A DNA stretch of 64,000 nt from Polyangiales bacterium (GCA_964202905.1 CAXNJO010000007.1:32001-96000); one strand, 5' to 3'; positions 37,621 through 57,836 are shown, counted from the first letter of the stretch. Translations and numbers: made by a program. Notes: generated by a model from the letters alone, not told the origin.

Positions 37621-40549
37621 TCAGGTCCCGTCGACGAGCACGTGGCGGAGCACGACGCCGCCAGTCCCCGCGACGTACACGTAGCGGTCGGCGCGCACGA
37701 CCGCGCGCAGGCTCTGGCCGGAGACCTCGAGCGGGAGCGTGCGCCAGAGGCCGTCCTCGCCCCGCTCGAGCGCGGTCCCGTCGTCCCCGACCGCGAGAGG
37801 GAGGCCCCGCGGTCCGAGGCCGATGGCGTGCAACGTCGGGCCCGCGTCGTGTTCGACGCGGCAATCGGCGGGCGATATCGCGACGATGAGCCCACCGTCG
37901 CCCGCGGCCCAGGCCTCCTGCCCCGCGCCTCGCACGACCCCGCGCAGCATGCGGCCGGATGCGGGTTCGCACGGTTGACGGGTGGTCCGCTCCGCGCCGA
38001 CGCGAAGCACGGCGCCGTTCGCGCCGACGACGAGCGCATCCTTGGGCGTGCCGGCGATCGCAGCGAGGTCGCCGGTGTCGGGCACGCGCGTCGCCTGCAA
38101 CGCGGCGAGCGGACCGCGGAGCAGCGTCCCTTCGCCCCCGACGACGAGGACGCCGTCTTCGTCCGCGACGACGTCGCGCCACGGCTGACGTAACGGTGAT
38201 GCGCGCAGGGTGGCACGGTCCGCGACGATTTCCACGAGCGCGCCGTCGTCGCCGACCGCGAGCAGGGCGTCGGGCCCGAGCGCCACGAGCCCCCCGAGGC
38301 CGGAGCGCGTGGGGGACACGCTCTCGGAAAACCCCGCCTCGCCTTCGCGGGCGATGCGCCCGTATTCGCCGACCGCCACGAGCGCGCCGCCGAGAGACGC
38401 GAGGTCGCGGATCGCACCGGTCGGTCCGGCGGTGAGCAGGCGGACGTGGTCGTCGGCGAGCGAGGCCACCCGTCCGCCCGCGCCGACCAGCCAGGTGCGC
38501 TCTCCCTGCGCGCCGGACAGCGCGTACCACGGGCGATCCGCGCCGCTCTCGAGTCGTACTCCGCGGTCGCCCTGCACGAGCAGGACCTCGCCGTGCGTCC
38601 CCGCGATCGCGATGCGATCACCATCACAGTCGATGGCGGTCCATGCAGAGGTTCCCGTGTCGCGGAGCGCGCGCCAGACGTCCGGTCCGACGCGCCGCAG
38701 CACGACGCCCCCGTCGCCCGCAGCGTAGAGCGGACCGCCGGGGCAGCCCCCGAGCCCACGGAGGGTCGCGCGGGTCCCGCTGCGCTCGCGGATGGCGCCG
38801 CGCGGTCCGACGCGCACGATGGTGCCGGCCTCACCCGCGGCGAAGACCTCCGCGCCGACGACCGCGAGCGCGCGCAGCGCAGCGCCGCCCGTCGCGCGCG
38901 CGGCGTCGAGCGCGGAGACGTGGCGGTCGACGACGCGGAGGAGCGTGCCCGCGTCGCCGGCGACGAACGCCTCCGTCGGCGACACGGCGGCGACGGCGTG
39001 CAGCGCGCGGTCGGTGCCTGCGTCGAGGCGAATCGGCGCCGCGTCGCTCAGCCGCACGAGGGTGCCGTGCGCGCCCGCGGCGAGCGCGTCGCGCGTGCCG
39101 GTGAAGGCGACGGCCTCGAGGTCCTCCGTCGTGCCCGTATCCCACGTGGCGAGGCCCTGCGGCATCAGTCGCGCCGCCGCGCCGCGTCGTCCGACCATCG
39201 CGACGAGCCCGCGGCCGCCGACGTCGAGGCCGAGGTAGGTTGGAAGCGCGCGGGGGAGCGGGTTCAGCCAGCGCCAGCCTTCGCCTCCGCCGCGGTCCGG
39301 TCCGGCGAGCGGCGCGGCCCGCGGGGCCGCCGGCGTCGGCAGCGCGCTCTGCTCGACGGGCTTCGGGCGGCGCTCGCCGAGCAGCGCGGTCGCGACCGTC
39401 GCGCTTGCGAGCAGCAGCAGCGCGAGCCCTGCGATGGGGAGCCAGCGTGACGACGGCGACACGACGGGGGGCACCGCGTCCGCCGCGCCGTCCGCATCGT
39501 CGTCGCCCGCCCGCGCCGGCGCGCGCTCGGCCCACGCACCGCCTGGCGACCTGGTCCGATCGCACCCACGCATCGCCCGCGGCCTGCGTCGCCGCGAGAC
39601 CAACCTGCTCGAGCGCGTCGAGCGCCGAGGGCGCGAGCGAGGCGGTCGGCGGCGCCTCGAGGATGACGGGCGCGCCGTCGAACGCGCGGAAGGGCGCGAG
39701 CGCCTCGCGGACCTCGCGCGCTGACGCGTGACGCTGGGCGCGATCCTTCGCGAGGAGCCGCTCGATCACCGCGCCGAGGGCCTCGGGGACGTCGCCACGG
39801 TAGCGGCGCACCGGGGGCGGCGGCTCGGTGCAGATCTTCACGATCAACATCGGGAACGAGCTGTCGTCGAAGGGATGTTGACCCGTGAGCGCGCGGAAGA
39901 GGATGACGCCGAGCGCGTAGAGGTCGACCCGGTGATCGACGTCCCGCGCGCCGCGCGCCTGCTCGGGCGCCATGTAGTAGGGCGTGCCGAGGGCCGTCCC
40001 CGTGCGCGTCGCCGCGTCCTGCGGCGTGCCGAGCGCGGCCTTCACCTTGCTGATGCCGAAATCGAGCACCTTCACGAAGCGCGGCTCGCCCTCGCGTCGC
40101 GTGAGAAAGACGTTCTCCGGCTTGAGATCGCGGTGCACGATCTCCTTCGCGTGGACGGCTTCGAGCGCCTCGCAGACCTGCGACACCACGTCGATGACGT
40201 CGGCGATCGGCAGCGGACCGCGCGCGCGGATCTCCGCGGCGAGGTCGTGCCCCTCGAGCAGCTCGAGCACCATGAAGACCGAGCCGTCCTCGGCCTCGCC
40301 GAGCTCGAGCACCTCGATGACGTGCGGGTTCCCGATCGCCGTCGCCGCGAATGCCTCGCGTCGGAAGCGCGCGACGATGTCCGGGTCGGCGGCGTATTGC
40401 GCGTGCAGCAGCTTGACCGCGACGCGCCCGCCGACGCGGATGTTCTCGGCTTCGTAGATCGTGCCCATCCCGCCGGCAGCGATCGCGCGGAGCAAACGGT
40501 AGCGACCGCCGAGGAGGGCGCCCACGCGCAAATCGCGAGCCTGCGTCAC
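37621..40549 (-). CDS. Membrane Ser/Thr protein kinase with extracellular beta-propeller (WD40/YVTN/BNR-like) domain; +1 frameshift near 39560
   Basis: AAGGMG, VAVK, HRDLKPEN, DFG, GTPYYMAPE; TM WLPIAGLALLLL; W.WLNPLP then many 'L.AV...AVG..G.LL' repeats; span is 3n+1. Confidence 0.88.
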
Positions 40550-40555
40550 GGCGCG

Positions 40556-40561
40556 AGTGTA
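40556..40561 (-). promoter_or_regulatory. -10 box TACACT 6 nt before the kinase GTG start (leaderless-type)
   Basis: Minus strand TACACT-cgcgcc-GTG. Confidence 0.5.
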
Positions 40562-40691
40562 TCCGCGTGTCCCGGCGACGGGTGCGCCAATCCGCCCGCG
40601 GAGCCCGTCCTCGATGCGCCGCCGGCGTCGCGCGCAAATCGTGGCCCGTCCATTGCTCTTCCGGAGCGCGTCGGCTTACTCTCGGAGACTC

Positions 40692-40952
40692 ATGACCCCA
40701 TCCGCGCTCCCCACCCTGGCCATCGCACGCTCCCTCCGGGCGGTCGTGCGTGCGCGTTTGGAGCGTGCGCGGTCCGCGTCCGCGGCAGGCGAGGGCCTCG
40801 CCGAGAACGAGCGCGGCGTCGCGATGGTGGAGTACGTGACGCTGCTCTGTCTCGTCACCCTCAGCGGTGCGGCGACCGTCGTCGCGCTCGGCGTGCCGCT
40901 CATGCAGCTCTTCCGCTACGTCCAGATGGTCATCGCGATGCCCATCCCCTGA
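40692..40952 (+). CDS. Flp-type prepilin 1
   Basis: ENERG|VAMVEY class III signal with E+5/Y+6 and a hydrophobic helix; GGAG RBS. Confidence 0.75.
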   Translation: MTPSALPTLAIARSLRAVVRARLERARSASAAGEGLAENERGVAMVEYVTLLCLVTLSGAATVVALGVPLMQLFRYVQMVIAMPIP

Positions 40953-41043: not shown

Positions 41044-41279
41044 ATGGCGAAGAAGACCCCGTCGAAGTCCATCGTGCTCGAGACCCCGAAGAAGGACCTC
41101 CCGTCGCTGCTCCGCGATCAGCGCGGTCTGACCACGGTCGAGTACATCATCATCCTCTGCCTGATTGCGGTCGTGGGCTTCGGCGTCTGGAAGAAGTTCG
41201 GCGCGACGGTCAAGGACGCGCGTCGGCGAGGCGAACGACACGCTCGGCGCGTATGTCCGGCGAAGCCACCACCGAGTAG
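41044..41279 (+). CDS. flp: Flp major prepilin; two apparent +1 insertions
   Basis: RDQRG|LTTVEYIIILCLIAVV; GAGGAG RBS; corrected end TRVGEANDTLGAMSGEATTE. Confidence 0.85.
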
Positions 41280-41292
41280 TCCGCGACCCGGC

Positions 41293-41847
41293 ATGCTGCC
41301 TCAGTGGGCCACGGACGGCGCGCGCATCGCCGCGCTCGGGGTCGTCGCAATCGCGGCGTTCACCGACGCGCGGCGTGAGCGAATCCCGAACTGGCTCACG
41401 CTCCCCGCGATCGCGTTCGGGCCTTTGTTCTGGCTGTTCGCGGACTTCTACTGGGGCGGGATCCGCTCGCTCCTCGGCCTCGTCCTCTGCGCCGCGGTCC
41501 CGTACTGGCTGTTCCGGCGCGGGGCGTGGGCAGGGGGCGACGTCAAACTCTTCGCGGCGATCGGCGCCCTCGTGGGCGGTGACTACGGCGGCGTCGGCCT
41601 CGGCATCGAGGCGCTGCTCTTCACGACGATGGCGGCGGCTGCGTACGCCCTCGTGCGGCTCGCCTGGGAGGGCAAGCTGCTGCGCACGCTCGCGAATGCG
41701 TTCTTCCTGCCGCTCAACCCGGTGCTCCCGAAGGCCTGGCGTCGGGAGATCACCCCGGAGCTGATGTCCCGGGTGAGGCTTGGCGTACCCGCGCTGGTGG
41801 GGACTGCGGTCGCCGTCGGGCTCCGTTACCCGACGCTGTGGATGTGA
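41293..41847 (+). CDS. cpaA: A24 prepilin peptidase (TadV/CpaA)
   Basis: AAFTDARRERIPNWLT and GGDVKL catalytic Asp motifs; multiple TM segments. Confidence 0.92.
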   Translation: MLPQWATDGARIAALGVVAIAAFTDARRERIPNWLTLPAIAFGPLFWLFADFYWGGIRSLLGLVLCAAVPYWLFRRGAWAGGDVKLFAAIGALVGGDYGGVGLGIEALLFTTMAAAAYALVRLAWEGKLLRTLANAFFLPLNPVLPKAWRREITPELMSRVRLGVPALVGTAVAVGLRYPTLWM

Positions 41848-41942: not shown

Positions 41943-42950
41943 ATGACGTTCGCTTCGAGGCGCGACGCCGACCCCCGTGATGACGCCGACCCCCGTGATG
42001 ACGCCGACCCCCGTGATGCAGCGGCGACACGCACTGCGCCGTGGGGGCTCGCGCGCGACGAGCGCGGCGCGGCCTATGTCGAGTTCCTGATCGTCTTCAT
42101 CCCGATCTTCATGATGTTCCTGGGGATGATCCAGGCCGCGATGATGTACGCGGCGAACCTCGTGGTGACGCACGCGGCGAACACCGCCTCGCGCGCAGCG
42201 ATCGTCGTGCTCGACGACGCCGAGTCCGCCTACGGCGACGAGGACCGGAACGACCTCAGCGGGGGCGGCGGCGGCGAGTCCCCCCTCGACAAGGTCGACG
42301 GTTTCCTCGAATGGGCGGGCTTGGGCTCCGCCGCCGCTGCGCCGGCCCGCGAGGCGGGCTCGACCTCGGGCGCGCGGATGAACGCCATCCGCAGCGCGGC
42401 TTCGATCCCACTCCTCGCCGTCTCGCCGTCGATGAGCCAGCTGGTCGGGTCGGAGAGCGTCTACGCCGCGATCGGCGGCAACCCCGCCGAGCGCGGGCTG
42501 ACGGGCGCCGCCGTCTACAACCGCACGGCGGTCGCCGTGACGTTCCCGACCGCGCGCGCCGGCACGAACTACAAGGCGCAGTTCGCCACCAACGAGGACG
42601 TCACCGTCCGCGTGACCTACCTCTTCCACTGCGCCGTGCCGCTCGTGAACCGCATCATGTGCGACGATATTATCGCCCTGAAGACGGGCGTGCCGCTCGC
42701 CGCCGTGCGCGCCCTCGCGGAGCGCACCGCCAGCGGAGACGCCTCACCGGCCGAGATCGCGGCGCTCATCGAGCGTGTGCGTGACGGGCGCGCCCGATTG
42801 CAGCGCGCGAACCCCGGCGTCGCCGAGCTGGACGGTGCCGAGTCGCCCTGGCTCGCCTCCCTCACGGCCGTGACGGGCGCGCGCTTCCTCGTGCTGCGTG
42901 CCGAGGCGACGATGCCCAACCACGGGGCCGCTTACAGCTATGTGGAGTGA
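41943..42950 (+). CDS. tadE: TadE-family minor pilin
   Basis: RDERG|AAYVEFLIVFIP...VVTHAANTASRAAIV; AAGGAGG RBS. Confidence 0.85.
   Translation: MTFASRRDADPRDDADPRDDADPRDAAATRTAPWGLARDERGAAYVEFLIVFIPIFMMFLGMIQAAMMYAANLVVTHAANTASRAAIVVLDDAESAYGDEDRNDLSGGGGGESPLDKVDGFLEWAGLGSAAAAPAREAGSTSGARMNAIRSAASIPLLAVSPSMSQLVGSESVYAAIGGNPAERGLTGAAVYNRTAVAVTFPTARAGTNYKAQFATNEDVTVRVTYLFHCAVPLVNRIMCDDIIALKTGVPLAAVRALAERTASGDASPAEIAALIERVRDGRARLQRANPGVAELDGAESPWLASLTAVTGARFLVLRAEATMPNHGAAYSYVE
41964..42017 (+). repeat. 18-nt perfect tandem repeat GACGCCGACCCCCGTGAT x3
   Basis: Three exact copies encoding DADPRD in the TadE leader. Confidence 0.95.
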
Positions 42951-42954: not shown

Positions 42955-44314
42955 ATGAGCACCCGACCCGCGCCGACGTCCGCTCCCGAATCCGCCGCCG
43001 CCGGCCGCCCCGGTCTCGTCGCCGACGAGGGCGGCGCGATCATGGTCATCGGCGTGTTCATGGCCGTCCTGCTGGTCGGCTTCATGTACTACCTGATCGG
43101 CGTCGGCGAGACGATCTTCTACCGCGAGCGCATGGCCGACGCGGCCGACGCGGGCGCGTGGGCGGCAGCCGTGATGCATGCGCGCGGGATGAACGCGATC
43201 GTGCTCATCAACATGATCATGGCTGCCATCGCTGCGGTCGTGCTCGCGATCGGCGCGGTGCTCTTCATCATCGACGTGGGCATCGCGATCGCGACGGCGC
43301 TCGTGGCCTCGGTGGTCACCGCGCCCATCGGGGCGCCGGTGCTCAGCTGCGCTCACCCCGATCCGGCCGGTCGTGAACACCATCCATCAGGCCGCGCAGC
43401 GCTTCGCGAATGCCGTCCTGCCCGTGCTCAACAAGGCCGCGACCGGCGTGAAATACGCGACGCCCTGGATCGCGCAGGTGAAAGTGCTGAACGTCGGCGA
43501 GTCGTACAAGCCGCCCGTCGACGTGGGCATCTTCGTGTCGAAGACGCTCGTCGACGGGCTGCCCGTCGAGGACGACGAGTGCAAGGTCCTCGAGGATCGC
43601 GGCATCAAGTACATCGAGGTCCTGATCGGCAACGCGCTCGGCAACATCCCGATCCTGAGCACCGTGATGGGGTGGGTGGGCGGCCTCGCGGCGAAGGCCG
43701 GCAGCGCGGTCTACGGCGGCGTCTGCGGGAGCGGCGGAGGAACCGCCGGCGCCGACGTGGTCTCGGACGCCGTCGGGGCTGCGACGGACGCGGCCATGGA
43801 AGAGGCGGGCTGCAACGACGACCCGCCCCCGGACCCGATGCCCGAGGGCTGCGACGCGGAGCTCCCCGAGACGAGCGGCGTGACCGCGCCCGCGAGCACC
43901 TCGACCGGCTCCGACGGCAAGGGCCCGAAGAAGGTCAAGGACGACTGCAACCTCGGCGACGAGTGCTTCCAACTCCGCGCCATCATGGTCGGCACGCCCG
44001 GCTATGAGAAGACGATGCGCGGCGTGCAGATCGCGAACTGGGGCCACGAGAACGAGACCGGCTCCATGTACACCCAGATGGCGAACCTCGGCCGCGGCTC
44101 GCTCGCGCAGGCGGAGTTCTACTGGGACAAGGGCGACGAGGACGCGCAGGAGATGCGCGACGACTGGATGTGGGAGATGAACTGGCGCGCGCGTCTGCGT
44201 CGGTTCCGCGTCCCGGCTGACTCGCTGCTCGGTGACGCCTGCACCGCGGGGGGCGGCTTCTGCGACGCCATCCTCGGGAGCGCGGACATGATCAACGCGG
44301 TTATCGTGCACTGA
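42955..44314 (+). CDS. tadG: TadG-like minor pilin; +1 frameshift near 43350
   Basis: ADEGG|AIMVIGVFMAV...MADAADAGAWAAAVMHARGMN; C-terminal AQAEFY...W.MNWRARLRR; span is 3n+1. Confidence 0.78.
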
Positions 44315-44898
44315 TGGAGCGCCCGATGAACGCCACGGCCCGCGTCTCCACTCCCCACCCTGCGACGGCCCCGGGTCGCCGCGCGCTGCGTGCGCTGTTG
44401 CCCCGCCCGCTCCGCGCGCTCCTCCGAGACGAGCGCGGCAGCGTCATGACCGAGGCCGTCGTGATGCTCCCGTTCTTCGTGCTCGTGTGGGGCTGCATCA
44501 TCTACGTCTCGCAGCTCTACGAGAAGGGCATCGAGACGCAGGCCGTCGCGCGCGAGTGCGCATGGCGCCACGCCAAGGACAACTGCGAGGGCGATTCGCG
44601 CTGCGCGATCGCCGCCGGCCTCGACCCGAGCCGGGATTACGGCAGCGGCGACGACGCCGCCATCGAGTCGGCCGAGGGCTCCGGCGGCCCGGGCTTCCTC
44701 GGCGACGGCTTCCTCACCAACATCCTCTTCGGGGCCGACGTCACGGCGACGGCCGAGGACACGACGCGCAAGCCCGAGCTGATTGGCGGCGGCGACGCGC
44801 AGCTGACGGGCAAGGTCGGCCTCGCCTGCAACGAGAAGCCACGGGGCAACCTGGGCGAGGTCATCAGCAGCGCGTGGAGCGCGCTGTGGACGTTCTGA
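44314..44898 (+). CDS. TadE/TadF-like minor pilin
   Basis: RDERG|SVMTEAVVMLPFF, ARECAW, CNE. Confidence 0.75.
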   Translation: MERPMNATARVSTPHPATAPGRRALRALLPRPLRALLRDERGSVMTEAVVMLPFFVLVWGCIIYVSQLYEKGIETQAVARECAWRHAKDNCEGDSRCAIAAGLDPSRDYGSGDDAAIESAEGSGGPGFLGDGFLTNILFGADVTATAEDTTRKPELIGGGDAQLTGKVGLACNEKPRGNLGEVISSAWSALWTF

Positions 44899-44911: not shown

Positions 44912-45910
44912 ATGAGCGTGCGTCGACCATCGTCCATGTCGCTCGGCGCGCTCGTCTGGGCGCGCATGAAGAGCAACGCCATTGAGTACGTGCCACGGTT
45001 CGCGCGGGTCGGGGCGCTGCTCGCGGCCCTCTTCGCGATCGCCATCGTCGTCGTTGGGCACCGCGCGAAGGCCGACCTGCACGAGGTGATGATGGGCTTC
45101 GGCGCGCAGATGATGCGCTACGAGGGCGCGCAGCGGCAGGGCGCGCCGCGCCAGCTCTATCTGAACGGCGAGCGGATGCTGCTCGCGACGGCCTCGACGA
45201 CGCACAGCCTCGACGCCGTGCTCGACTACTACGAGCGCCGCTGCATGGCCCGCGACGGCGCGCTCGAGCAGGAGCTCATGCGCGTGAGCGGCGCGGAGGC
45301 GTCGCGACTCCCCGTCGACGAGCGCCTCATCGACGCGACGATCCGCCACGACACGGGCGGTCGGGGTTATGTCGCGTGCCTCGACATGGGCGAGGACGCG
45401 ATCGGACTCACCGAACTCAGCGCGCGCCTCAAGTCCTTCTCCGACACGGGCAACCTCGGGGACGTCGGCCACCTCCGTTACGTCTACGTGACCGACGAGA
45501 CCACCTCGCGGCACGTCGTCACCTTCTGGACCGAGGGGCGCTTCGAGCTGCGCAAGGTCGTGCCCGAGACGGGCGATGCGCCGGGCCGCGACGTGGACGC
45601 GTTGCCACGCCCTGCGGGGTCGCGGCGGATGCTCTCCGCGTGGGAAGACGGCCAGCCGCAGTCGCTCACGGTCTACGCCTTCGCCCCGCAGGGCGAGGAG
45701 GCGCTCGAGCGCTTCTACCGTACGGAGCTCCCCCGACGCGGCTGGCGCGTGCACTCGCCGCGCGATCTCGCCGAGGGCTCGCTGCAGCGCCCCCCCGAGC
45801 TCGACGATGTGCGCGTGCTCGGCGCCGAGCGCGCGGGCCGCAGCGCCTTCCTCGTGCTCGGCGAGGACGCCGAAGGACACGGCACGCTCACCGTCCTGAC
45901 GGCGCGCTGA
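44912..45910 (+). CDS. Tad-associated single-TM hypothetical protein
   Basis: N-terminal TM, LNG...YERRC, GYVACL, LRYVY, DAPGRDV; located between the minor pilins and cpaB. Confidence 0.7.
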   Translation: MSVRRPSSMSLGALVWARMKSNAIEYVPRFARVGALLAALFAIAIVVVGHRAKADLHEVMMGFGAQMMRYEGAQRQGAPRQLYLNGERMLLATASTTHSLDAVLDYYERRCMARDGALEQELMRVSGAEASRLPVDERLIDATIRHDTGGRGYVACLDMGEDAIGLTELSARLKSFSDTGNLGDVGHLRYVYVTDETTSRHVVTFWTEGRFELRKVVPETGDAPGRDVDALPRPAGSRRMLSAWEDGQPQSLTVYAFAPQGEEALERFYRTELPRRGWRVHSPRDLAEGSLQRPPELDDVRVLGAERAGRSAFLVLGEDAEGHGTLTVLTAR

Positions 45911-48094: not shown

Positions 48095-49804
48095 ATGCTG
48101 CTGTCGATCGAGATCTCGGACGGCACGGTCGAGAACCTCGCGATCCACGACACCCCGCAGGTCGTGATCGGGCGCGACGCGGGCTGTCACGTCGTGCTCC
48201 CCTCGCCGGAGGTGTCGCGTCGGCACTGCCGCCTCGACGTCACGCCGCAGGGCGTGACGATCACCGACACCTCCGCCAACGGCACGATCGTCGGGAACGA
48301 GCGCGTCGTGCAGTCGACGGTGCTGCTGCAGCCCGAGGTCCCGTTCCGCGTCGGGCCCTACGTCGTGCGCCTTCGCGGCGGTCAGGCGCGTCGGCCGACG
48401 CCGCCGCAGGCGCCCGCGCCGCCCCCCGTCGCGCCCGCGCACGGCCTCCCCACCGCGCCCGCCGCGCCTTTTCGGGCGCCGCAAGCCCCGGCCCCGAGCG
48501 CGGACGATCCGCCTTGGCGCCACCGGAACGGCACGAAGGGCGTCTCCGTCGAGGTGCGCCGGCGCCTGCACCGGATGCTCCTCGACCACCTCGATCTCGC
48601 GACGCTCGATCGCACCAAGATGGACGAGCGGGTCATGCGCCCGAAGGTGCTCGACGCCCTCAAGCGCATCATCCAGACGATCGCGCGCGACCTGCCGCCG
48701 GGGACGGACCTCGCGCAGCTGATCGAGGAGATGAGCGACGAGGCGCTCGGGCTCGGTCCGCTCGAGCTGCTCCTCGCCGACGACTCCGTGAACGAGATCA
48801 TGGTCGTCGACCCGTCGACCATCTTCGTCGAGCGCGGCGGCCGCATCGAGCACACGCCGCTCCGTTTCACCGACGACGAGAGCGTGCGCGCCGTCATCGA
48901 GCGCATCGTGACGCCGCTCGGCCGCCGCATCGACGAGTCGACTCCCCTCGTCGATGCGCGCCTCAAGGACGGCTCGCGCGTCAACGCGGTCATCAAGCCG
49001 CTCGCGCTGCGCGGCGCGTGCATCACGATCCGCAAGTTCGCGCGCTCCGCGCTGAACCTCGAGGACCTCGTCCGCTTCGGCGCGCTCACCGAGCAGATGG
49101 GGCGCTTCCTCGTGCGCGCGGTGACGGCCCGCAAGAACATCGTCATCTCCGGCGGTACCGGCTCGGGCAAGACCACGCTGCTCAACGTCCTGTCGGGCGC
49201 GATCCCCGCCGAGGAGCGCGTCGTCACGATCGAGGACGCCGCTGAGCTGCGGCTCGTGCAGCCGCACGTCGTGTCGCTCGAGTCGCGCCCGGCGAACATG
49301 GAAGGCAAGGGCGAGATCACGATCCGCGACCTCGTGAAGAACGCCCTCCGCATGCGCCCCGACCGCATCCTCGTCGGCGAGTGCCGCGGCGGTGAGGCGC
49401 TCGACATGTTGCAGGCGATGAACACGGGCCACGACGGCTCCATGACGACGACGCACTCGAACAGCCCGCGCGAGGCCATCGCGCGGCTCGAGACGCTCGT
49501 GATGATGAGCGGGCTCGACCTCCCGTCGCGCGCGATCCGCGAGCAGATCTCGCAATCGGTGCACGTCGTGCTCCAGCAGGCGCGGCTCTCGGACGGCTCC
49601 CGCAAGATCACGAGCATCGCGGAGGTGACGGGGATCGACCCGGACAGCGGCGAGGTCATCGTGTCCGAGATCTTCCGCTTCGAGCGCACCGGGACGGGCA
49701 AGGGCGGCAAGGTGCTCGGCGAGTTCCGCGCGACGGGCTTCCTGCCCTCGTTCCTCGACGAGTTCATCAAGCGGGGCCTCGTGCGGGAGGGCGACTACCT
49801 GTGA
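48095..49804 (+). CDS. cpaF: FHA-domain CpaF/TadA ATPase (KilF-like architecture)
   Basis: FHA IGRD...VSRRH...SANGT; GLGPLE, DARLKDGSRVN, GGTGSGKTT, LRMRPDRILVGECRG, MNTGHDG. Confidence 0.93.
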   Translation: MLLSIEISDGTVENLAIHDTPQVVIGRDAGCHVVLPSPEVSRRHCRLDVTPQGVTITDTSANGTIVGNERVVQSTVLLQPEVPFRVGPYVVRLRGGQARRPTPPQAPAPPPVAPAHGLPTAPAAPFRAPQAPAPSADDPPWRHRNGTKGVSVEVRRRLHRMLLDHLDLATLDRTKMDERVMRPKVLDALKRIIQTIARDLPPGTDLAQLIEEMSDEALGLGPLELLLADDSVNEIMVVDPSTIFVERGGRIEHTPLRFTDDESVRAVIERIVTPLGRRIDESTPLVDARLKDGSRVNAVIKPLALRGACITIRKFARSALNLEDLVRFGALTEQMGRFLVRAVTARKNIVISGGTGSGKTTLLNVLSGAIPAEERVVTIEDAAELRLVQPHVVSLESRPANMEGKGEITIRDLVKNALRMRPDRILVGECRGGEALDMLQAMNTGHDGSMTTTHSNSPREAIARLETLVMMSGLDLPSRAIREQISQSVHVVLQQARLSDGSRKITSIAEVTGIDPDSGEVIVSEIFRFERTGTGKGGKVLGEFRATGFLPSFLDEFIKRGLVREGDYL

Positions 49805-50667
49805 ACGTCTCGCGCGCCACGGATTGGCTCGGCTATGGCGGCATCGCGCTGCTCGTCCTCGGCCTGACGGTCGGTGTGACGCTCGTGCTGTTCAACCCGC
49901 AGAGCGGGCCGCGCCGGGCGTATCGCGATTACGAGGCGACGCTCGAGCGGGAGGTGCGTTTCCTGCTCTACCGCACGACGGGCGCGCGCATCGCGCGGAC
50001 GCAGCTCGCCGCATCGGTCAGCCTGCTCGTCGCCGCCGCGTTCCTCGAGGATTTGCTGCTCGCGCTGCTCGCGCTGCCGGTCGCGCTCCTGCCGCTCGCG
50101 TGGCTGCAGTCGAAGCACGCGCGGCGCGTGCTGGTGATCGAGCTGCAGCTCGACTCGTGGCTGCAGCTGCTCGCGAACAGCCTCAAGGCCACGCCGTCGC
50201 TCGGCGAGGGCATCGCGTCGAGCGCGAAACTGATACGCGCGCCGCTCGGCGAAGAGCTCGACCTCGTGCTGAAGGAGATCGCGCTCGGCACGCCGCTCGA
50301 TCAGGCGGTGATGAACATGAGCGTGCGGATCGGCTCGCGCCCCGTGTCGGGCGCGCTCGCGATCATCCTCGTCGGGCGTCAGACGGGCGGTGATCTCACA
50401 CGCATCCTCGAGGAGGGCGCCGCGACGCTGCGCGAGATGTCGCGCCTCGAGGGCGTCGTGCGGACGAAGACGGCCGAGGGCAAGTCTCAGGCGTACGTCC
50501 TCGGCGGGATCCCCTTCGTGCTGCTCGGCGCGCTCTACATGGTCGACCCGTACTGGCTGCAGCCGCTCGCGGAGACGACCCTCGGCTACATCATCATCGC
50601 GGTCGCGACCTCGCTCTGGCTCGCGGCGATCGTCCTCGCGCGCAAGATCCTCGCGGTCGACGTCTAG
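49801..50667 (+). CDS. tadB: Tad inner-membrane platform TadB
   Basis: T2SF-like LLANSLKA..SL, PLGEEL, GRQTGGDL, TKTAEGK; follows cpaF. Confidence 0.88.
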   Translation: MNVSRATDWLGYGGIALLVLGLTVGVTLVLFNPQSGPRRAYRDYEATLEREVRFLLYRTTGARIARTQLAASVSLLVAAAFLEDLLLALLALPVALLPLAWLQSKHARRVLVIELQLDSWLQLLANSLKATPSLGEGIASSAKLIRAPLGEELDLVLKEIALGTPLDQAVMNMSVRIGSRPVSGALAIILVGRQTGGDLTRILEEGAATLREMSRLEGVVRTKTAEGKSQAYVLGGIPFVLLGALYMVDPYWLQPLAETTLGYIIIAVATSLWLAAIVLARKILAVDV

Positions 50668-50681: not shown

Positions 50682-51599
50682 ATGCTGTTTCAGCCCTCCA
50701 CGCTCACCGTCCTCGTCGGCCTCGTCTCGCTCGGCCTGTTCGCGCTCGGCGTGGCGTCCGCGGTCTTCGTGCTCGCGCGGAACCCGCCTGCTGTCCCGCC
50801 GCGCCTCGGCGCGCGGGGCTTGCGGCGCGCGCAGGCGCTCGCGGACGGCGGTCTCTTCGCGGTCGTCGAGCCCGTGATGCGCGTGACCGCGGGTTGGATC
50901 TCGCACCTGCCGATCGCGCCTCGGCGTCACGCGATCGACGAGCAGCTCGTGCACGCGGGCGATTGGCTCGGTCTCACGGCGGACGAGTACATCGCGCTCA
51001 CGAGCCTCTCGGGCGTGTTCTTCTCCATCCTGGGGCTCTCGATCATCACGATGCTCGAGCTGCCCGCGATGCTCGCGTTCTTCTTCGCGGGGCTCGGGCT
51101 CGTCCTCCCGTACATGCGGCTCACCGGTGAGATCGCGCGGCGTTTCAAGGAGGTCAACCGCTCGCTCCCGGCGGCCATCGATCTCGCGGCGCTGTGCATG
51201 AACGCGGGCCTCGATTTCCCGGGCGCGCTGCGGCAGTTCGTCGACAAGTCGGCCTCACGGCAGGACACGCTCGTCCTCGAGTTCGGCCGCATCCTGCAGG
51301 AGCTCGAGCTCGGGCGGACGCGGCGTCAGGCGCTCGAGAACTTCGCCGAGCGCTGCCCGACGGACGCCGTGCGTGATTTCGTCGGCTCGGTGGTGCAGGC
51401 CGAGGAGAAGGGCAACCCGTTGGCGCAGGTGCTGCGAATCCAGGCGGGCATGCTGCGCATGCGGCGCAGCATCATGGCCGAGGAGAACGCGGCGCGTGCG
51501 GCCGTCATGATGATGGGGCCGCTCATGCTGATTTTCTGCGCGATCATCATCATCCTGCTCGGCCCATTCATCGTGAACTCGATGGGCAAGGGGGTCTGA
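50682..51599 (+). CDS. tadC: Tad inner-membrane platform TadC
   Basis: LPAAIDLAALCMNAGLDF, GRTRRQAL, QAEEKGNPLAQVLR, AEENAAR, PLMLIF. Confidence 0.9.
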   Translation: MLFQPSTLTVLVGLVSLGLFALGVASAVFVLARNPPAVPPRLGARGLRRAQALADGGLFAVVEPVMRVTAGWISHLPIAPRRHAIDEQLVHAGDWLGLTADEYIALTSLSGVFFSILGLSIITMLELPAMLAFFFAGLGLVLPYMRLTGEIARRFKEVNRSLPAAIDLAALCMNAGLDFPGALRQFVDKSASRQDTLVLEFGRILQELELGRTRRQALENFAERCPTDAVRDFVGSVVQAEEKGNPLAQVLRIQAGMLRMRRSIMAEENAARAAVMMMGPLMLIFCAIIIILLGPFIVNSMGKGV

Positions 51600-51605: not shown

Positions 51606-52472
51606 ATGGACACCTACGTCGAGGTCCTGCGCGCAGACGGAAGCTCCGAGCGTCACCGCATCGAGGGCGAGCAGATGACGCTCGGCCGCTCGCCGGCGGC
51701 CGGCATCACGGTCACCGGCGTCGACGAGCTCGAGCCCGAGCACCTGCTCGTCGCCCCGCGCTCGGACGGCTGCTGGGTGGCGATCGCGAAGGGCGCGCGG
51801 GTCGGCGCCGTCGTGCGGGGCGCGCCGTTCGAGCACGGGCTGCTCGCGTGGGGCTCGGAGATCGAGATCGGCTCCATGCGCTTGCGTGTGAGTGACGTCG
51901 TCCCGGGCGCGAAGAAGGAGCAGAAGGTCAGCACGCCGGTCGCGCTCGCCGCCCTCGTCGGGATCGGGCTCGTCGGGTGGATGCTGCTGTCGGACAATGG
52001 GGGCGAGCTGCCGGAGACCGCGGCGACGGCGCCTCCGCTCTTCGGCGCGCTGCCGACGTGTGGCTCCGACGGGCCCGCGGCGTTGCACGGCGCGCGCGAG
52101 GCCGCCGAGGCCGCGGCCGCGAAGAGCGAGCGCTACGTGTTCAGCGCACAGGACGGCGTGACGGCGGTCTCGCTCTACGGGCGCGCGCAGGTGTGCTTCG
52201 GACAGGCGGGAGCCGCGGCCGCCGCGCGCCGGATGTCGACCGAGCGTGAGGCGATGACGCGTCGGATCGACGAGGACTACAAGACGCACCGCCTGCGCCT
52301 CGAGCGCTCGCTGCACCACGCGCGCTTCCCCGAGGCGCTCGTCGAGGCGCACGCGCTGCGGGCACTCACGCGGCACCTCGAGGGGCCGTACGTCGACTGG
52401 CTCATGCTGCTCGAGCGGCGCCTGCAGATGCTCGTGGACACCGCGAACCTGCGGGCCTCGAGCGGGCAGTGA
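51606..52472 (+). CDS. Bitopic protein with degenerate FHA-like N-domain and helical periplasmic domain
   Basis: MTLGRSPAAG...EPEH...EIEIGSMRL; TM ALAALVGIGLVGWML. Confidence 0.65.
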   Translation: MDTYVEVLRADGSSERHRIEGEQMTLGRSPAAGITVTGVDELEPEHLLVAPRSDGCWVAIAKGARVGAVVRGAPFEHGLLAWGSEIEIGSMRLRVSDVVPGAKKEQKVSTPVALAALVGIGLVGWMLLSDNGGELPETAATAPPLFGALPTCGSDGPAALHGAREAAEAAAAKSERYVFSAQDGVTAVSLYGRAQVCFGQAGAAAAARRMSTEREAMTRRIDEDYKTHRLRLERSLHHARFPEALVEAHALRALTRHLEGPYVDWLMLLERRLQMLVDTANLRASSGQ

Positions 52473-53320
52473 CGGCGCCGGGCGCGATGGCCTCCCGACC
52501 GCGCCGTCTGTTCGCGCCGTGCGTCGCGGCCGTGCTGACCGTCGCGGCGTGCGGGGGCGCGGGCGCGGGCGCGCCGGAGGGCCCGCCGCCGACGGATCCG
52601 GTCGCGGAGGTGGGGGCGCAGCGCCTCTTCGACACGGGGATCGCGGCGGCCGCGCAAGGGGACTACGTGCGCGCGGAGCAGTACCTCGCTGCCGCGGGCG
52701 CGCGCGGGTACGAGGAGGCGGCGGTCATCGGGCCGCTCGTGCGCGTGTGCGTCGCGGCCTCGCGGCTCCGGCAGGCGCTCGTCTACGCGCAGCCCTACCT
52801 CCGGCGGCACGCGACGGACTGGCGGCTGCGCTTCGTCGTCGCGGCGGTGCTGCTCGGGCTCGAGCGGGTCGACGATGCGCGCGCGGAGCTCGAGCGCGTG
52901 ATCGCCACCGCGCCGGAGGCCCCGGAGCCGTACTTCGTGCTCGGTGCGCTGCTGCGCGACCGGCTCCGCGACGACGCCGCTGCGCGGCCGCGCTTCGAGC
53001 GCTACCTCGCGCTCGTGCCGGAGGGTGCGCACTCGGACGAAGCGCGCGTCGCGCTCGCGTCGCCGCTGCCCGCGCAAGGGCCCCCGCAAGTGACCCCGCA
53101 GGACCCGACGCTCCAGCCCGCGCCGACCCCGGTGGCTCTGCCGGCGCCAGCGGCGCAGCCGGTTCAGGCGCCAGCGGCGCAGCCGGTTCAGGCGCCAGCG
53201 GCGCAGCCGGTTCAGGCGCCAGCGGTGCGGGCCGCCGTGCCCCCCGCCGCGCCGCCGGGACCGGTGCGGCTCCCCGCGCGCACGCGCCCGACGCCTCCCA
53301 CCGAGACAGGTACGCCGTGA
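52469..53320 (+). CDS. TPR lipoprotein (TadD/pilotin-like) with Pro/Ala-rich tail
   Basis: Lipobox VAAC; TPR patterns GDYVRAEQYL, ARAELERVIATAPEAPEPYFVLG, FERYLALVPEG. Confidence 0.75.
   Translation: MTAPGAMASRPRRLFAPCVAAVLTVAACGGAGAGAPEGPPPTDPVAEVGAQRLFDTGIAAAAQGDYVRAEQYLAAAGARGYEEAAVIGPLVRVCVAASRLRQALVYAQPYLRRHATDWRLRFVVAAVLLGLERVDDARAELERVIATAPEAPEPYFVLGALLRDRLRDDAAARPRFERYLALVPEGAHSDEARVALASPLPAQGPPQVTPQDPTLQPAPTPVALPAPAAQPVQAPAAQPVQAPAAQPVQAPAVRAAVPPAAPPGPVRLPARTRPTPPTETGTP
53143..53225 (+). repeat. 24-nt perfect tandem repeat GGCGCCAGCGGCGCAGCCGGTTCA x3.5
   Basis: Exact copies at 53143, 53167 and 53191; encodes APAAQPVQ. Confidence 0.95.
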
Positions 53321-54441
53321 TCCCGAAAGAAGTCTTCGAGCAGACGCTGCTCTCGTTCCTCGAGCCGATCCGGCCCTTTCTCGACGACGCGTCCGTCAGC
53401 GAGATCATGATCAACGGGCCCTTCGAAATCTACATCGAGAAGAAGGGCCGGCTCCACAAGACCGACGCGAAGTTCGCGTCGCAGCACGCGCTCGAGGCCG
53501 CGCTGCGGAACCTCGCGCAGTACGTCGGGCGGCACATCGACGAAGAGCGCCCGATCCTCGAGGCGCGCCTCCCCGACGGCTCCCGTGTCGAGGCGGTGCT
53601 GCCGCCGGCCGCGCCCGACGGGCCGAGCGTCGCGATCCGCCGCTTCTTCAAGGAGACGCTCACCGTGAAGCGGCTCCTCGAGTTCGGCTCGTTCACGCAG
53701 GACGCGGCCGACTGCATGCACGCGATCGTCGCCTGCAAACAGAACGTCATCGTCGCGGGCGGCACCGGCTCGGGCAAGACGTCGCTCCTCAACGTGCTGT
53801 CGTCCTTCGCCGCCGAGGACGAGCGCGTCGTGGTGATCGAGGACTCGCGCGAGTTGCAGCTGCAGCGGCCACACGTCGTGCAGCTCGAGGCGCGCCCGCC
53901 GAACGCGCGGGGGCGCGGCGCGGTGTCGATCCGCGATCTCTTCAAGGCGACGCTGCGCATGCGCCCCGACCGCATCGTCGTCGGCGAGATCCGCGGCGCC
54001 GAGGCGCTCGACCTGATCCAGGCGATGACCTCGGGCCACGGCGGCTGCCTTTCGACCGTGCACGCGAGCTACCCGATCGACACGTGCAACCGCCTCGAGA
54101 CGATGGCGCTCATGGCCGACGTGGGCCTGCCGCTCTTCGCGCTGCGCGCGCAGCTCGCGAGCGCGGTCGACGTGATTGTGCAGACCTCGCGCCTCGCGGA
54201 TGGCTCGCGCTGCGTGACGCACCTGACCGAGGTGCGAGGCTACGATCCGCAAGGCGGTTATCGGCTCGCGGATCTGTTCGTCCGCGAGTACGATGGCAAG
54301 GACGCGACGGGCAAAGTGCTCTCGCGCTTCGTGCCGACGGGCGAGCTCCCGAAGAGCCTCGAGATGATCCGCGCGCACGGCCACGAACTGCCGCAGTCGA
54401 TGTACGACGCGGCCGAGCGGCGCGGCGCGCACCGCGACTGA
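53317..54441 (+). CDS. cpaF: Second CpaF/TadA-family ATPase (no FHA, short N-terminus)
   Basis: GTG overlaps the upstream stop; VSEIMING, EARLPDGSRV, GGTGSGKTS, LRMRPDRIVVGEIRG, MTSGHGG..STVH. Confidence 0.92.
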   Translation: MIPKEVFEQTLLSFLEPIRPFLDDASVSEIMINGPFEIYIEKKGRLHKTDAKFASQHALEAALRNLAQYVGRHIDEERPILEARLPDGSRVEAVLPPAAPDGPSVAIRRFFKETLTVKRLLEFGSFTQDAADCMHAIVACKQNVIVAGGTGSGKTSLLNVLSSFAAEDERVVVIEDSRELQLQRPHVVQLEARPPNARGRGAVSIRDLFKATLRMRPDRIVVGEIRGAEALDLIQAMTSGHGGCLSTVHASYPIDTCNRLETMALMADVGLPLFALRAQLASAVDVIVQTSRLADGSRCVTHLTEVRGYDPQGGYRLADLFVREYDGKDATGKVLSRFVPTGELPKSLEMIRAHGHELPQSMYDAAERRGAHRD

Positions 54442-54496
54442 CGGTCGCTCCGCAATCCGACGCATCGCGCGCGAACTTGGCTAAGATGCGGGCCGC

Positions 54497-56014
54497 ATGG
54501 TCGACCCGCGCCACGGTCCCCAGGTCCGGCCCGCTCCGACGTCCTGGGCGCGCGTGCGCCTGCTGAAGGGCGACTCCGCGGGCGGGCTGTGGGACGTCTC
54601 GAGCGACATCCCCGAGGCCCGCATCGCCATCGGCAGCGATGCGGGCTGCGGTTGGCTGGTGCGTGGCAGCGGCGTCGCGCCATTCCACTTCGAAGTCTAT
54701 TGGGACGGCACCGTGCTCTGGGTCGGCAACAGCGCGGGCGCGCCGGACGTGCGCCTCGATGGTGAGCCGCTCGGCGATTGGCGTCCGATCAGCGGCCGCG
54801 CGCGGATCGAGTTCGGGCGGGCGGCCATGCTGGTCGAGGCGTCCGACGCGGTGGCGCGCGCGTCGGTCGTGCCGCAGCCGCGGGACTCTCAAGCCCCGTT
54901 CGAGAGCGAGAACACACGCATCGCGGCGCCGCGGGACGAGCGGCGCGAGGTGTACGCCTCCGGGAACAGCGCCCTGCAGGAGGTGCCGCCGCTCAGCGAG
55001 CTCGAGGCGAAGCCCTCGCGTGGAGTGCATGCGGCGTTGGGGGCGTCCGGCGACGGGGGCGCGACGCGCGTCGTCTCGTTGGCCGAGGCCGAGGCGGGCC
55101 GTGCGGCGCCGGTCGCGGCCCCGCGGGTCGGCGTGGGGGCGGGCGTGCGGCGCGTCGAGGAGCCCCCGCCGATCTCGGAGGAGGCGACGCGCCTCGGCGT
55201 CTTCGCCGGCGCGGGGCAGGCGAGCGCGCTCCCGCCGGGCGTCTCTGCGGCCTCGCGAGCGGGGGGCGGTCCGGGGGGCGGCGCGGTGGGCGTGGCGTTG
55301 GGGGCGCCGAGCGGGGCGCCTTCGCCTTTCGGCCCGTCGGTCGCGGCGCCGTCCGCTTTCGACGCGCCGGGCGCGGGGGCAGGGCTGCGCGGGCCTGTCG
55401 CGGGCGCGGCGAGCCCGTTCGCGGCGCCGCCGCCGGTGGCGGCTGATCCGTCGTCGATCGCGTTCGCGCGGGTCGGCGAGAAGCTGAAGGGCGGGCTCGG
55501 CAGGCCCAAGCTGTCGCAGCCGCCGCGTACGTGGCTGCTGCTCGCGCTGGTCGTGGCCGTGCTCGTGGTGTTCGTGCTCGACGCCTTCGACCCGACGCCG
55601 GAGCCTCCGGCCGGGTCTCCCGCGGTGGCCACGCAGCCCGCGGCCTCTCCGCCCGGGACGGCGGACGCCGGGTTGGCGGCGGTCCCCGCTTTGGCGCGGA
55701 TCGGGGCAGGCCTCGCCGTGGGACCGGGCGGGCTGGTCGCGGGCGGCATGCCGCTCGCGGTGGCCGACGCGGGGGTCGCCGCGCCGTCCGGGGACACGCC
55801 GCCCGGTGCGCCGGTGCCCGCGACGCCGGAGCGCCAGGCCGCGGACGCGCTGATCGCCGGTCGCTACCGCGAGGCGCTCCCGCTCTATCAGGCGCTCGCT
55901 GCGGCGAACCCGCAGAACCCCACCTTCTCCCAGATCGTCGTCGTGCTCGAGCGGCGCGTGCGGGCCGCGTGTCGCGACGGGCTCACCCCGGAGGGCACGC
56001 AGTGCGAGCCGTGA
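54497..56014 (+). CDS. Bitopic protein: degenerate FHA-like domain, long Pro/Ala/Gly linker, TM, C-terminal TPR-like helix pair
   Basis: IAIGSDAGCGWLV...VAPFH...IEFG; TM WLLLALVVAVLVVFV; AADALIAGRYREALPLYQAL. Confidence 0.7.
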   Translation: MVDPRHGPQVRPAPTSWARVRLLKGDSAGGLWDVSSDIPEARIAIGSDAGCGWLVRGSGVAPFHFEVYWDGTVLWVGNSAGAPDVRLDGEPLGDWRPISGRARIEFGRAAMLVEASDAVARASVVPQPRDSQAPFESENTRIAAPRDERREVYASGNSALQEVPPLSELEAKPSRGVHAALGASGDGGATRVVSLAEAEAGRAAPVAAPRVGVGAGVRRVEEPPPISEEATRLGVFAGAGQASALPPGVSAASRAGGGPGGGAVGVALGAPSGAPSPFGPSVAAPSAFDAPGAGAGLRGPVAGAASPFAAPPPVAADPSSIAFARVGEKLKGGLGRPKLSQPPRTWLLLALVVAVLVVFVLDAFDPTPEPPAGSPAVATQPAASPPGTADAGLAAVPALARIGAGLAVGPGGLVAGGMPLAVADAGVAAPSGDTPPGAPVPATPERQAADALIAGRYREALPLYQALAAANPQNPTFSQIVVVLERRVRAACRDGLTPEGTQCEP

Positions 56015-56739
56015 ACCCGCCGCTGGGCGCGCCGCTCCTCACGCACTTCGCCGTGCTGCTCGGCGTCGCGTCCGTTCTCGTGGTCGGCGCCGCGTGCGAC
56101 GACCCGCCTCCGCCGCCCGAGTACCGCGTCTCCTTCACCGCGCTCGCCGATGCGGCGGCCCTCGGCGGCGTCGAGATCGCCGTCGCCGGGCGCCCGCTGG
56201 GGGTGACCGGGCCGGACGGGACGCTGCGCGCGAACCTGCGCGGGCGCGAGGGAGCGGTCGTGGCGTACCGCGTCAAGTGTCCGGAAGGATTCAGGGAACC
56301 GGAGCAGTCGCCGCCTCTGACCTTGCGTCGCTTCCGCGGCCTCGACCCGGCCGCGGCCGCGCGGGGCATCGAGCTCAACATCCAGTGCCGGCCGGCCGAG
56401 CGCCTCGCGGCGGTCGTCGTGCGGGCGGGCGGCATCCCCAACCTGCCGGTGCTGATGCAGGGGCAGCCCGTCGCGGTCACCGACGCGAGCGGCGTCGCGC
56501 ACCTGCTGCTGAAGCTGCCGCCGAACACCAGCTTCACGATGACGGTCGACACGCGCGCCAACCCGCGCCTCGTGCCGGCGAGCCCGACGCAGCCCTTCGT
56601 CGTGCCGGACGCAGACGACGTCCTCGTCTTCGACGCCCCGCTCGCCGAGCAGCAGGCGCCCACGAAGCGGCGCCGGGCCGTGCGCCGCGCGCCCGTGTTC
56701 ACCGGGCCGGTGCGGATCCCCTCGTCCGGTCGGCGCTGA
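56011..56739 (+). CDS. Lipoprotein with tandem Ig-like beta-sandwich repeats
   Basis: Lipobox GAAC; repeated G.P...T...G motifs (GRPLGVTGPDG and GQPVAVTDASG). Confidence 0.7.
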   Translation: MNPPLGAPLLTHFAVLLGVASVLVVGAACDDPPPPPEYRVSFTALADAAALGGVEIAVAGRPLGVTGPDGTLRANLRGREGAVVAYRVKCPEGFREPEQSPPLTLRRFRGLDPAAAARGIELNIQCRPAERLAAVVVRAGGIPNLPVLMQGQPVAVTDASGVAHLLLKLPPNTSFTMTVDTRANPRLVPASPTQPFVVPDADDVLVFDAPLAEQQAPTKRRRAVRRAPVFTGPVRIPSSGRR

Positions 56740-56819
56740 GCGCCTCGGCCCGGGGCGTGCGCCGCCGGCGGGCCGCGCCGAGAACTTGGAGCGACGGCGG
56801 TCGCGTAGTACGCGGGGCC

Positions 56820-57836
56820 ATGCTTCGCTCGCGTTTCTTCGCGTCCGCCGCGCTCGGCCTGGCGCTGCTCGCCACGATGGTCCCGTCGCGCGCGCGCGCG
56901 GACGGCGCAGCGGTGCTCGCGGTGCGCGAATCGGCGCGCGTCGCCGACCGCGTACGGCGGGAGGGCGAGGCCGCGCTGGTCGCTGCGCTGGCCGCCGACG
57001 GTGTGCGCGTGCGGACCGCCGCCGACACGGAGGCCGTGCTGGTCGGCGATCCGCTCGCCGAGTGCGGCGCGGTCGACTGCGCGGTGGCCGTCGCGCGGCG
57101 GCTCGGCGTCGATTTCGTCGTCGTGCTTTCGGTGTTCGGCACCGACGCGCAGGCGGACAGTGTCGCCGTCGCGCTCGCGACCGCCGACGGGCTGAGCTTC
57201 GGCGGGGAGGCCGACGTCGACGCCGCACGCCCGCTCGCGCGCGCGGTCGCCGACGCGCTCGCCGAGGCGCGGATCCGGCAGGGCGCCGGAACGCGCGGCA
57301 CGCTCCGCGTCGAGACGACGCCGTCGGGTGCCACCGTGCACGTCGACGGCGAGTTTCGCGGGGAGACCCCGCTTTTCCGCGCGGTCGAGCCGGGCGCGCA
57401 CCGCGTCGTGGTCAGCCAGTCGGGCCGTGTGACCGAGTCGCGCGACGTCGTCGTGCAGCTGCACGAGGAGACGACGCTGCAGCTCGCGCTCGCGCCGGTC
57501 GCGCCCTCTGCGCCGCGGGTCGCCGCGGTCCGGCGCCCGCTGCTCGGGCCGTTGGTGCTCGGTGGTGCCGGCGCTGCGCTGCTCGCGTTCGATCTCGGCT
57601 CGCTCGCGGCGCTCGGGTGCAGCGAGGAGGCGCCGGGGGGCGCGTGCCGCCGCCGCGTCGTCGTCGATCCGCTGCCCTTCGGGCTCTACGCCGGAGTCGG
57701 TGCCGGCGCCGTGGTCGGCGCGCTGCTCTGGTGGCTGCTCGGGGCCCGCGAGGTCGAGACGGCGCAGGCCGCGGGCGCCGCGTCGCTGCGCCTCGACGTC
57801 GGCCTGCGCGAGGTCTCGCTCCGCGGCCGTTTCTGA
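56820..57836 (+). CDS. PEGA domain exported protein
   Basis: Signal peptide; GTLRVETTPSGATVHVDGEFRGETP...PGAHRVVV; C-terminal SLRGRF. Confidence 0.88.
   Translation: MLRSRFFASAALGLALLATMVPSRARADGAAVLAVRESARVADRVRREGEAALVAALAADGVRVRTAADTEAVLVGDPLAECGAVDCAVAVARRLGVDFVVVLSVFGTDAQADSVAVALATADGLSFGGEADVDAARPLARAVADALAEARIRQGAGTRGTLRVETTPSGATVHVDGEFRGETPLFRAVEPGAHRVVVSQSGRVTESRDVVVQLHEETTLQLALAPVAPSAPRVAAVRRPLLGPLVLGGAGAALLAFDLGSLAALGCSEEAPGGACRRRVVVDPLPFGLYAGVGAGAVVGALLWWLLGAREVETAQAAGAASLRLDVGLREVSLRGRF

Follow-up and report, generated by a model that had tools for sequence, protein, structure and literature searches.

A putative Kil-like Tad pilus locus of a Polyangiales bacterium carries a second CpaF ATPase without a three-helix bundle

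According to PMC12019362, it has yet to be explained how a single CpaF ATPase both extends and retracts the Tad pilus. The minimum architecture of CpaF comprises a three-helix bundle, an N-terminal domain and an ATPase domain, and all three classes (I-III) of the family bear the bundle (Yen et al., PMC12019362); helix 5 and loop 8 form its predicted contact with the platform (PMC11300603, PMC12019362). The Kil machine of Myxococcus xanthus has a single ATPase, KilF, which is fused to an FHA domain, and its cluster II consists of kilB-kilG-kilH together with FHA genes (Seef et al., PMC8460266). In type IVa pili, the split between PilB and PilT arose by duplication of an ATPase, and PilB/PilT and PilT/PilU are the only duplications listed in the text of Denise et al. 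(PMC6668835). Here, we report the analysis of a 64,000-nucleotide stretch of DNA from a Polyangiales bacterium (GCA_964202905.1, CAXNJO010000007.1:32001-96000; the window in what follows), in which a single Tad pilus locus encodes two intact CpaF ATPases, CpaF1 and CpaF2.

The locus is a real, conserved variant of a known machine, marked by its second, bundle-less ATPase. Literature searches turned up no account of a Tad or Kil locus with a second CpaF or with one that lacks the bundle, including the available text of PMC11821767, PMC11509652 and bioRxiv 10.64898/2026.08.20.745974, although supplementary data and synteny figures could still show the gene. A natural pair on one platform, in which a full-length motor stands beside an intact bundle-less one, separates the parts experimentally and could reveal which of their surfaces determine direction. 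The locus further brings Polyangiales and other abundant, mostly uncultured myxobacteria into the range of Kil-like machines.

Two CpaF ATPases in a Kil-like Tad locus

The window corresponds to C7:32001-96000 of genome G000 (5.68 Mb, 94.5% complete, 73% GC), whose closest named relatives, judged by CpaF2, are Sandaracinaceae metagenome-assembled genomes (92% and 80%). All 18 co-oriented genes that a first-pass annotation of the window had described were found in the order given there, on the + strand at 40692-57836 (Table 1); position 37621, where it had set the start of the locus, proved to be where a Ser/Thr kinase-repeat gene on the minus strand ends (37621-40549), which is not a Tad gene. 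TadV/CpaA, RcpC/CpaB, RcpA/CpaC, TadB and TadC were all matched above Pfam or NCBIfam cut-offs, which makes up the Tad (type IVc) pilus set, and both flp genes carry the prepilin cleavage motif. None of the 18 genes encodes a TadZ/CpaE ParA-like protein, which is usual but not core in Tad systems. As had been noted earlier, both ATPases keep Walker A (GGTGSGKT), Walker B (VGE) and an intact His box (Pfam T2SSE, E 1e-64 and 2e-57). The best match of each among solved structures is CpaF, placing both in the TadA/CpaF family, and by Pfam the FHA domain is confined to CpaF1.

The gene content supports the earlier proposal of a Kil-like Tad machine. In a careful tree of 55 rows, the FHA-fused CpaF1 groups with KilF-like proteins (support 88/96), apart from the canonical Tad ATPases (99/95), and CpaF2 forms a further clade (100/100); a quick tree of 92 rows agrees. 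KilF is represented in the tree by five of 13 metagenomic KilF-like proteins, which had been picked out by a motif taken from the alignment of Seef et al. Because the FHA-fused class of CpaF is mostly betaproteobacterial (PMC12019362), the fusion alone does not define a Kil system; the order cpaB...tadB-tadC-FHA is in addition that of kil cluster II. Further likenesses to M. xanthus Kil are the lack of TadZ in the locus, the several FHA, TPR and lipoprotein genes, the two Flp-type pilins, the three-gene minor pilin set and a genome that also carries type III export genes. By Pfam the order of the minor pilins is TadE, TadG-like, TadE, and they may correspond to the three-pilin Tip complex of Kil, for which the published profiles are almost confined to Myxococcales (PMC12075869). 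The locus differs from M. xanthus Kil in forming one cluster instead of two, in having a second ATPase, in a secretin with no BON match and in type III genes that are scattered rather than clustered; prey killing is a putative role.

In 16 metagenomic KilF-like loci the order is FHA-cpaA-cpaC-KilF-FHA, and their flanks, 7 kb long at most, contain no second ATPase. Chondromyces, Labilithrix and Sandaracinus have already been reported to possess Tad homologues, with no mention of a second ATPase in the text consulted (PMC10196010), and the first part (one of seven) of the supermatrix in Fig. 7 of Seef et al. contains no Polyangiales row (PMC8460266). The KilF motif was found in none of 401 phylum genomes, a sample that apparently lacks Myxococcaceae unless the pattern is too strict. 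The Tad machine of the predator Bdellovibrio bacteriovorus also has more than one tadA gene, but the extra genes lie in separate loci and rcpA2-tadA2 is dispensable (bioRxiv 10.64898/2026.07.08.737194).

Architecture, conservation and distribution of CpaF2

The loss of the N-terminal three-helix bundle is the main peculiarity of CpaF2, which shares 45% identity with CpaF1 over 327 residues. The alignment of CpaF1 (569 residues) to Caulobacter crescentus CpaF begins inside the bundle; that of CpaF2 begins only at CpaF residue 149. A structure model of CpaF2 (predicted local distance difference test score, pLDDT, 90.9), compared by VIA-align, superposes from its residue 8 onward on CpaF 141-142 (Z 39.1, root-mean-square deviation 3.8, 359 aligned residues); against PilT chains (Z 24), the superposition starts at model residue 12-13 and PilT residue 1. 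The short N-terminus is common to all 114 measurable proteins among 120 database homologues, with 26-33 residues ahead of the first conserved motif. CpaF2 resembles Caulobacter CpaF in fold (45% identity) and in its catalytic residues (PMC11300603, PMC12019362), but it lacks the bundle and the hinge glycines, has a reversed charge at E331 and stands beside another CpaF. With the bundle missing, it fits none of the published classes I-III.

Residue conservation was compared over 111 CpaF2, 74 CpaF1 and 20 canonical rows, with three basal CpaF2-like rows excluded. The nine catalytic positions of CpaF defined by Hohl et al. (PMC11300603), R217, R223, K287, E312, R347, E357, R359, H382 and R431 in Caulobacter, are kept in 110-111 of the 111 CpaF2 rows, and cis and trans catalytic arginines alike are retained. 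The hinge glycine G147 is kept in none of them (0/111), and the pore-loop residue E331 is replaced by K or R in 103, with pore-loop G332/G334 and loop-8 G204/D208 largely kept. In helix 5 and loop 8, Q201 is new in 111 of 111 rows, N198 stands in 105 and G204 in 111, and R206 is lost, so that the surface predicted to face the platform is remodelled yet conserved. CpaF2 departs from CpaF1 and from canonical CpaF at many positions that are invariant in those two groups (27 listed). In CpaF1, the phosphothreonine-binding residues of the FHA domain (G-R, S-x-x-H, N) are kept in all 35 aligned rows.

Recent duplication of the second ATPase, which the first-pass annotation had named as a case that would undermine its view, is rejected: a single clade of CpaF1 and CpaF2 from six Polyangia loci gave p-AU 3e-40 in the approximately unbiased (AU) test. 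CpaF1 and CpaF2 as sister clades were neither shown nor rejected (p-AU 0.25), and the attachment point of the CpaF2 clade varied between trees. Compared with locus L031, nonsynonymous over synonymous divergence (dN/dS) is 0.051/0.358 (~0.14) for cpaF2 and 0.043/0.344 (~0.13) for the cpaF1 core, so that CpaF2 is under purifying selection. Bundle-less relatives labelled Planctomycetota and Thermotomaculum fall inside the CpaF2 clade, and none of the 120 proteins listed with them has the bundle; no named Myxococcus or Bdellovibrio protein occurs among the best 120 homologues of basal CpaF2-like queries.

A synteny search showed the two-ATPase arrangement to be recurrent. A CpaF2-type match was found in 32 of 40 relatives and in none of the other eight; 31 of the 32 have a clear CpaF1, and in 26 the two genes share a contig and a strand, with CpaF2 3.4-7 kb downstream. 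The 80 named CpaF2 loci, mostly from Polyangiales, include those of Chondromyces apiculatus (L065) and Labilithrix luteola (L069), which are cultured carriers, as is Sandaracinus amylolyticus with its CpaF2 orthologue P0094. Where the flank is sufficient, cpaF1, tadB and tadC lie upstream of cpaF2 (56 of 62 loci) and the TPR lipoprotein gene immediately upstream (72 of 75); an FHA-like gene follows in 66 of 73 loci. In a phylum sample, some CpaF occurs in 79 of 141 genomes, and CpaF2-type genes reach several further families, including 9/9 genomes of family f32. The CpaF1 motifs of this family resemble Bradymonadales rows of the published alignment, and an initial assignment as Anaeromyxobacter-like was rejected on that match.

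The locus had been thought to work with only one TadB/TadC platform. This does not hold for G000, where an orphan module on another contig (C5:18951-30450, L188) encodes cpaB, tadB, tadC, FHA-like genes, a lipoprotein, flp, cpaA and three minor pilins, with neither ATPase nor secretin; the module may supply an alternative tip and platform. As a rule of the lineage the statement stands. Among 37 CpaF2-bearing genomes picked for quality, tadC is present once in 29, several of which are in 1-6 contigs, two or three times in seven and not at all in one fragmented genome. Extra copies derive from doubled two-ATPase loci (G010, G030, G040 and Labilithrix), in which both ATPases are doubled with the whole locus, from canonical Tad loci (G039, G046, G061) and from an orphan module in Labilithrix (L209) similar to that on C5. 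Owing to the single tadC of these 29 genomes and the other sources of the extra copies, a second platform does not explain CpaF2. Two ATPases per platform are the rule in this lineage; where Tad pili have a single bifunctional motor and Kil a single ATPase, the sequences here give two, both intact.

Possible roles of CpaF2

We tentatively propose, at a confidence that stops a little short of probable, that CpaF2 is a dedicated accessory motor, which retracts or disassembles the pilus that CpaF1 likely extends. Retraction or disassembly is favoured because CpaF2 is catalytically complete, is nearly always found with CpaF1, would share one platform with it, has a PilT-like start and presents a rewired face towards the predicted platform contact; the anatomy predicted from these sequences favours a separate accessory motor over the hetero-hexamer that had been suggested as an alternative. 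CpaF1 would be the KilF-type extension motor, recruited via its phosphothreonine-binding FHA domain, which perhaps docks on Thr motifs of the FHA-membrane proteins. CpaF2 would assemble a hexamer of its own and exchange onto the same TadB/TadC platform, as PilT does with PilB, and may be positioned by its usual gene neighbours, which encode the TPR lipoprotein, the FHA protein and the lipoprotein. The pilus would act at prey contact, in concert with the dispersed genes of a candidate needle-less type III export apparatus. In having a pair of paralogous ATPases for each platform, the second of which begins at PilT's structural start, the system recalls PilB/PilT/PilU of type IVa pili. Nevertheless, CpaF2 is not a homologue of PilT (17-21% identity; 45 bits for the PilT family TIGR01420, far under its cut-off of 319), and a retraction role would be convergent.

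More broadly, and with somewhat greater reserve, it is quite possible that, independently of PilT, a dedicated retraction motor evolved for the Kil-type Tad pili of most sampled Myxococcota lineages, in the form of a fourth class of CpaF that lacks the bundle. If this is true, the single-motor Kil system of M. xanthus would be a product of reduction, and Tad pili could no longer be called strictly a one-motor class.

Several observations weigh against a retraction motor. As M. xanthus Kil pili extend and retract with KilF as the sole described ATPase (PMC12075869, PMC8460266), a dedicated retraction motor is not required. Caulobacter mutants of the pore loop (E331 region) and hinge lose pilus function (PMC11300603), and CpaF2, changed at both, could therefore equally fail to engage the platform. 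The model of CpaF2 is nearer in fold to VirB11 HP0525 (Z 30) than to PilT. Furthermore, CpaF2 lies apart from the core genes in L056, L070, L073, L079, L104 and G050, which fits a separate sub-module, and the aligned rows are related and partly redundant, so that the counts of conserved residues are not independent.

In an unlikely alternative that retains some appeal, CpaF2 would act solely by way of CpaF1, either as part of a mixed hexamer or as a PilU-like partner with an influence on direction, force or timing, and would drive no platform alone. In its favour, CpaF2 accompanies CpaF1 in 31 of 32 relatives, is changed at the platform-contact residues R206 and E331, and lacks the bundle, without which Caulobacter CpaF is no longer expressed (PMC12019362). 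Sequence identities in one family also correlate with those in the other (r=0.95 over 70 loci), although co-inherited genes do so anyway. However, the cis and trans arginines kept in CpaF2 are predicted to be enough for a ring of its own, many CpaF-invariant positions are changed, and cpaF2 can be far from cpaF1 (G050).

We give a similarly low probability to CpaF2 being a VirB11/DotB-like traffic ATPase of an add-on module formed by the TPR lipoprotein, the FHA membrane protein and the lipoprotein, which would load or export cargo, or dismantle the machine at the contact site, without moving pilin. The modelled two-domain build of CpaF2, with one N-terminal helix and no bundle, is that of VirB11/HP0525, and its platform-facing helix has an invariant motif of its own. 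Moreover, where cpaF2 has become separated from the core genes, the FHA-like gene and the lipoprotein gene stay with it, the lipoprotein gene lying two genes from cpaF2 in L121 and L123. Yet CpaF2 is far nearer to CpaF (45%, Z 39) than to VirB11 (31% identity), and falls under the cut-offs of the VirB11 and TrbB families (TIGR02788, 222 versus 250; TIGR02782, 213 versus 305) in a Tad context with no type IV secretion genes in the locus. Loop-8 and pore-loop residues of CpaF are largely kept, as described above, and the FHA proteins and the lipoprotein have homologues in the orphan C5 module, which contains no ATPase.

It is far less probable that CpaF2 powers the ATPase-less second platform on C5, with one bifunctional motor per platform. 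In G000, intact CpaFs and platforms are indeed equal in number, exactly two of each, and Labilithrix too has an orphan platform module; but only one tadC is present in 29 of the 37 CpaF2-bearing genomes, and the Labilithrix orphan module is accompanied by two complete loci with both ATPases. As a general reason for CpaF2, the C5 platform is largely refuted. Finally, a recent, redundant or decaying duplicate, which the truncated N-terminus might suggest, can be set aside as extremely improbable in view of the 45% identity to CpaF1, the rejected common clade, the low dN/dS and the same short N-terminus in 114/114 measured homologues.

Gene content and neighbouring features

Table 1. Genes of the Tad locus (positions in the window)
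Gene or product	Position	Strand	Evidence and remarks
flp1, Flp-type prepilin, possibly an adaptor pilin	40692..40952	+	G|xxxxEY prepilin motif; no Pfam match; homologue beside pilin trimer of C5 module
flp2, likely major Flp pilin, frame-broken	41044..41279	+	Flp_Fap 24.1 bits, E 3e-5, under cut-off 32.2
cpaA/TadV prepilin peptidase	41293..41847	+	Peptidase_A24 E 2e-13
Minor pilin 1 (TadE-like)	41943..42950	+	TadE E 2e-8
Minor pilin 2 (TadG-like), one-base frameshift near 43345	42955..44314	+	Tad PF13400 E 0.004, under cut-off
Minor pilin 3 (TadE-like)	44314..44898	+	TadE E 0.016, under cut-off
Conserved membrane-anchored protein, no known family	44912..45910	+	No Pfam/NCBIfam match; syntenic in many loci; atlas matches are unnamed clusters
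cpaB/RcpC (KilB-like)	46005..46829	+	TIGR03177 over cut-off
cpaC secretin	46834..48090	+	Secretin E 3e-26; T2SS-T3SS_pil_N
CpaF1, KilF-type motor: FHA, Pro-rich linker, three-helix bundle, ATPase	48095..49804	+	Pfam, structure alignment, tree
tadB platform protein	49801..50667	+	T2SSF E 4e-11
tadC platform protein	50682..51599	+	T2SSF E 2e-14
Degenerate FHA (YscD-like), membrane segment, periplasmic domain	51606..52472	+	Yop-YscD_cpl E 0.003, under cut-off; kept in synteny
TPR lipoprotein	52469..53320	+	TPR_19 at cut-off
CpaF2, 374-residue ATPase with no FHA, three-helix bundle or hinge glycines; catalytic residues intact	53317..54441	+	Sequence and structure model
Degenerate FHA, low-complexity linker with Thr motifs, membrane segment, TPR-like domain	54497..56014	+	Weak YscD and TPR matches
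Lipoprotein, no known family, travels with cpaF2	56011..56739	+	No Pfam/NCBIfam match
PEGA-domain protein, co-oriented	56820..57836	+	PEGA E 3e-12

In this assembly the reading frames of two genes of the set, flp2 and minor pilin 2, are broken. The base at 41214 is missing from the public contigs in three of four runs, which have further small gaps at 41252-41266, and that at 43345 in one of four runs (depth 3). Since the public contigs lack these bases and both genes are whole in the same-genus locus L185 (73 and 446 residues), the frame breaks are probably assembly errors. The PEGA gene had been counted as part of the locus; its presence and orientation are as described, but it probably does not belong to the system, as no homologue was found in loci L031-L110, whose flanks are limited. 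A promoter and terminator scan gave no signal exceeding shuffles.

The cytoplasmic linker of the FHA-like protein encoded after cpaF2 has repeated acidic-Thr-basic/hydrophobic motifs, which are possible phosphothreonine docking sites for the FHA domain of CpaF1. Across the genes that follow cpaF2, such motifs number 42 against 7.2 in shuffles (~sixfold), in 28 of 56 open reading frames, with the motif chosen after the sequences had been inspected.

The divergent gene next to the locus encodes a Ser/Thr kinase, to which a membrane segment and a domain of propeller-like repeats are likely joined; it is frame-broken here and a single gene of 964 residues in L185. The kinase was considered as a conserved regulator of the Tad locus and rejected, because it neighbours the locus in L185 but not in L186.

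Five stand-alone type III-like genes are scattered over five contigs of G000: SctV-like (C6:7356-9443), SctN-like (C1:469626-470927), SctU-like (C3:443347-444420), SctR-like (C5:176351-177154) and SctJ-like (C9:60381-61172). The SctV and SctR genes score over the cut-off and the other three just under it, and all are separate from the large flagellar gene cluster (C3:757000-787000). Judged by sequence, they are a candidate for a dispersed, needle-less type III apparatus. Type III export genes of Bradymonas are also scattered, judged by locus tags, and rise during predation (PMC7460792); the nine supplementary files of the Bradymonas transcriptome contain no CpaF/TadA rows.

A third FHA-CpaF gene of G000 (C5:355375-357495; L187:76-2196) has a Walker A without lysine (GPGGVT) and DD as Walker B. 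It likely encodes a dead pseudo-ATPase, which could regulate the active motors; comparable degenerate FHA-CpaF genes occur in G002, G003, G010, G030, G038 and G040.

Some further variants were seen in the phylum. L075, from a Labilithrix metagenome-assembled genome, has both ATPases, with no tadB or tadC between them. L136, L143 and L146 (families f37 and f50) encode TadZ-TadA fusion ATPases in Myxococcota, as described for Bdellovibrio; bundle-less genes of the CpaF2 clade are also present in G131 and G051. In L141 (8654-11107, minus strand), a basal CpaF2-like ATPase is fused to an FHA domain and, by eye, to cyclic-nucleotide-binding and GspE-N-type-like domains.

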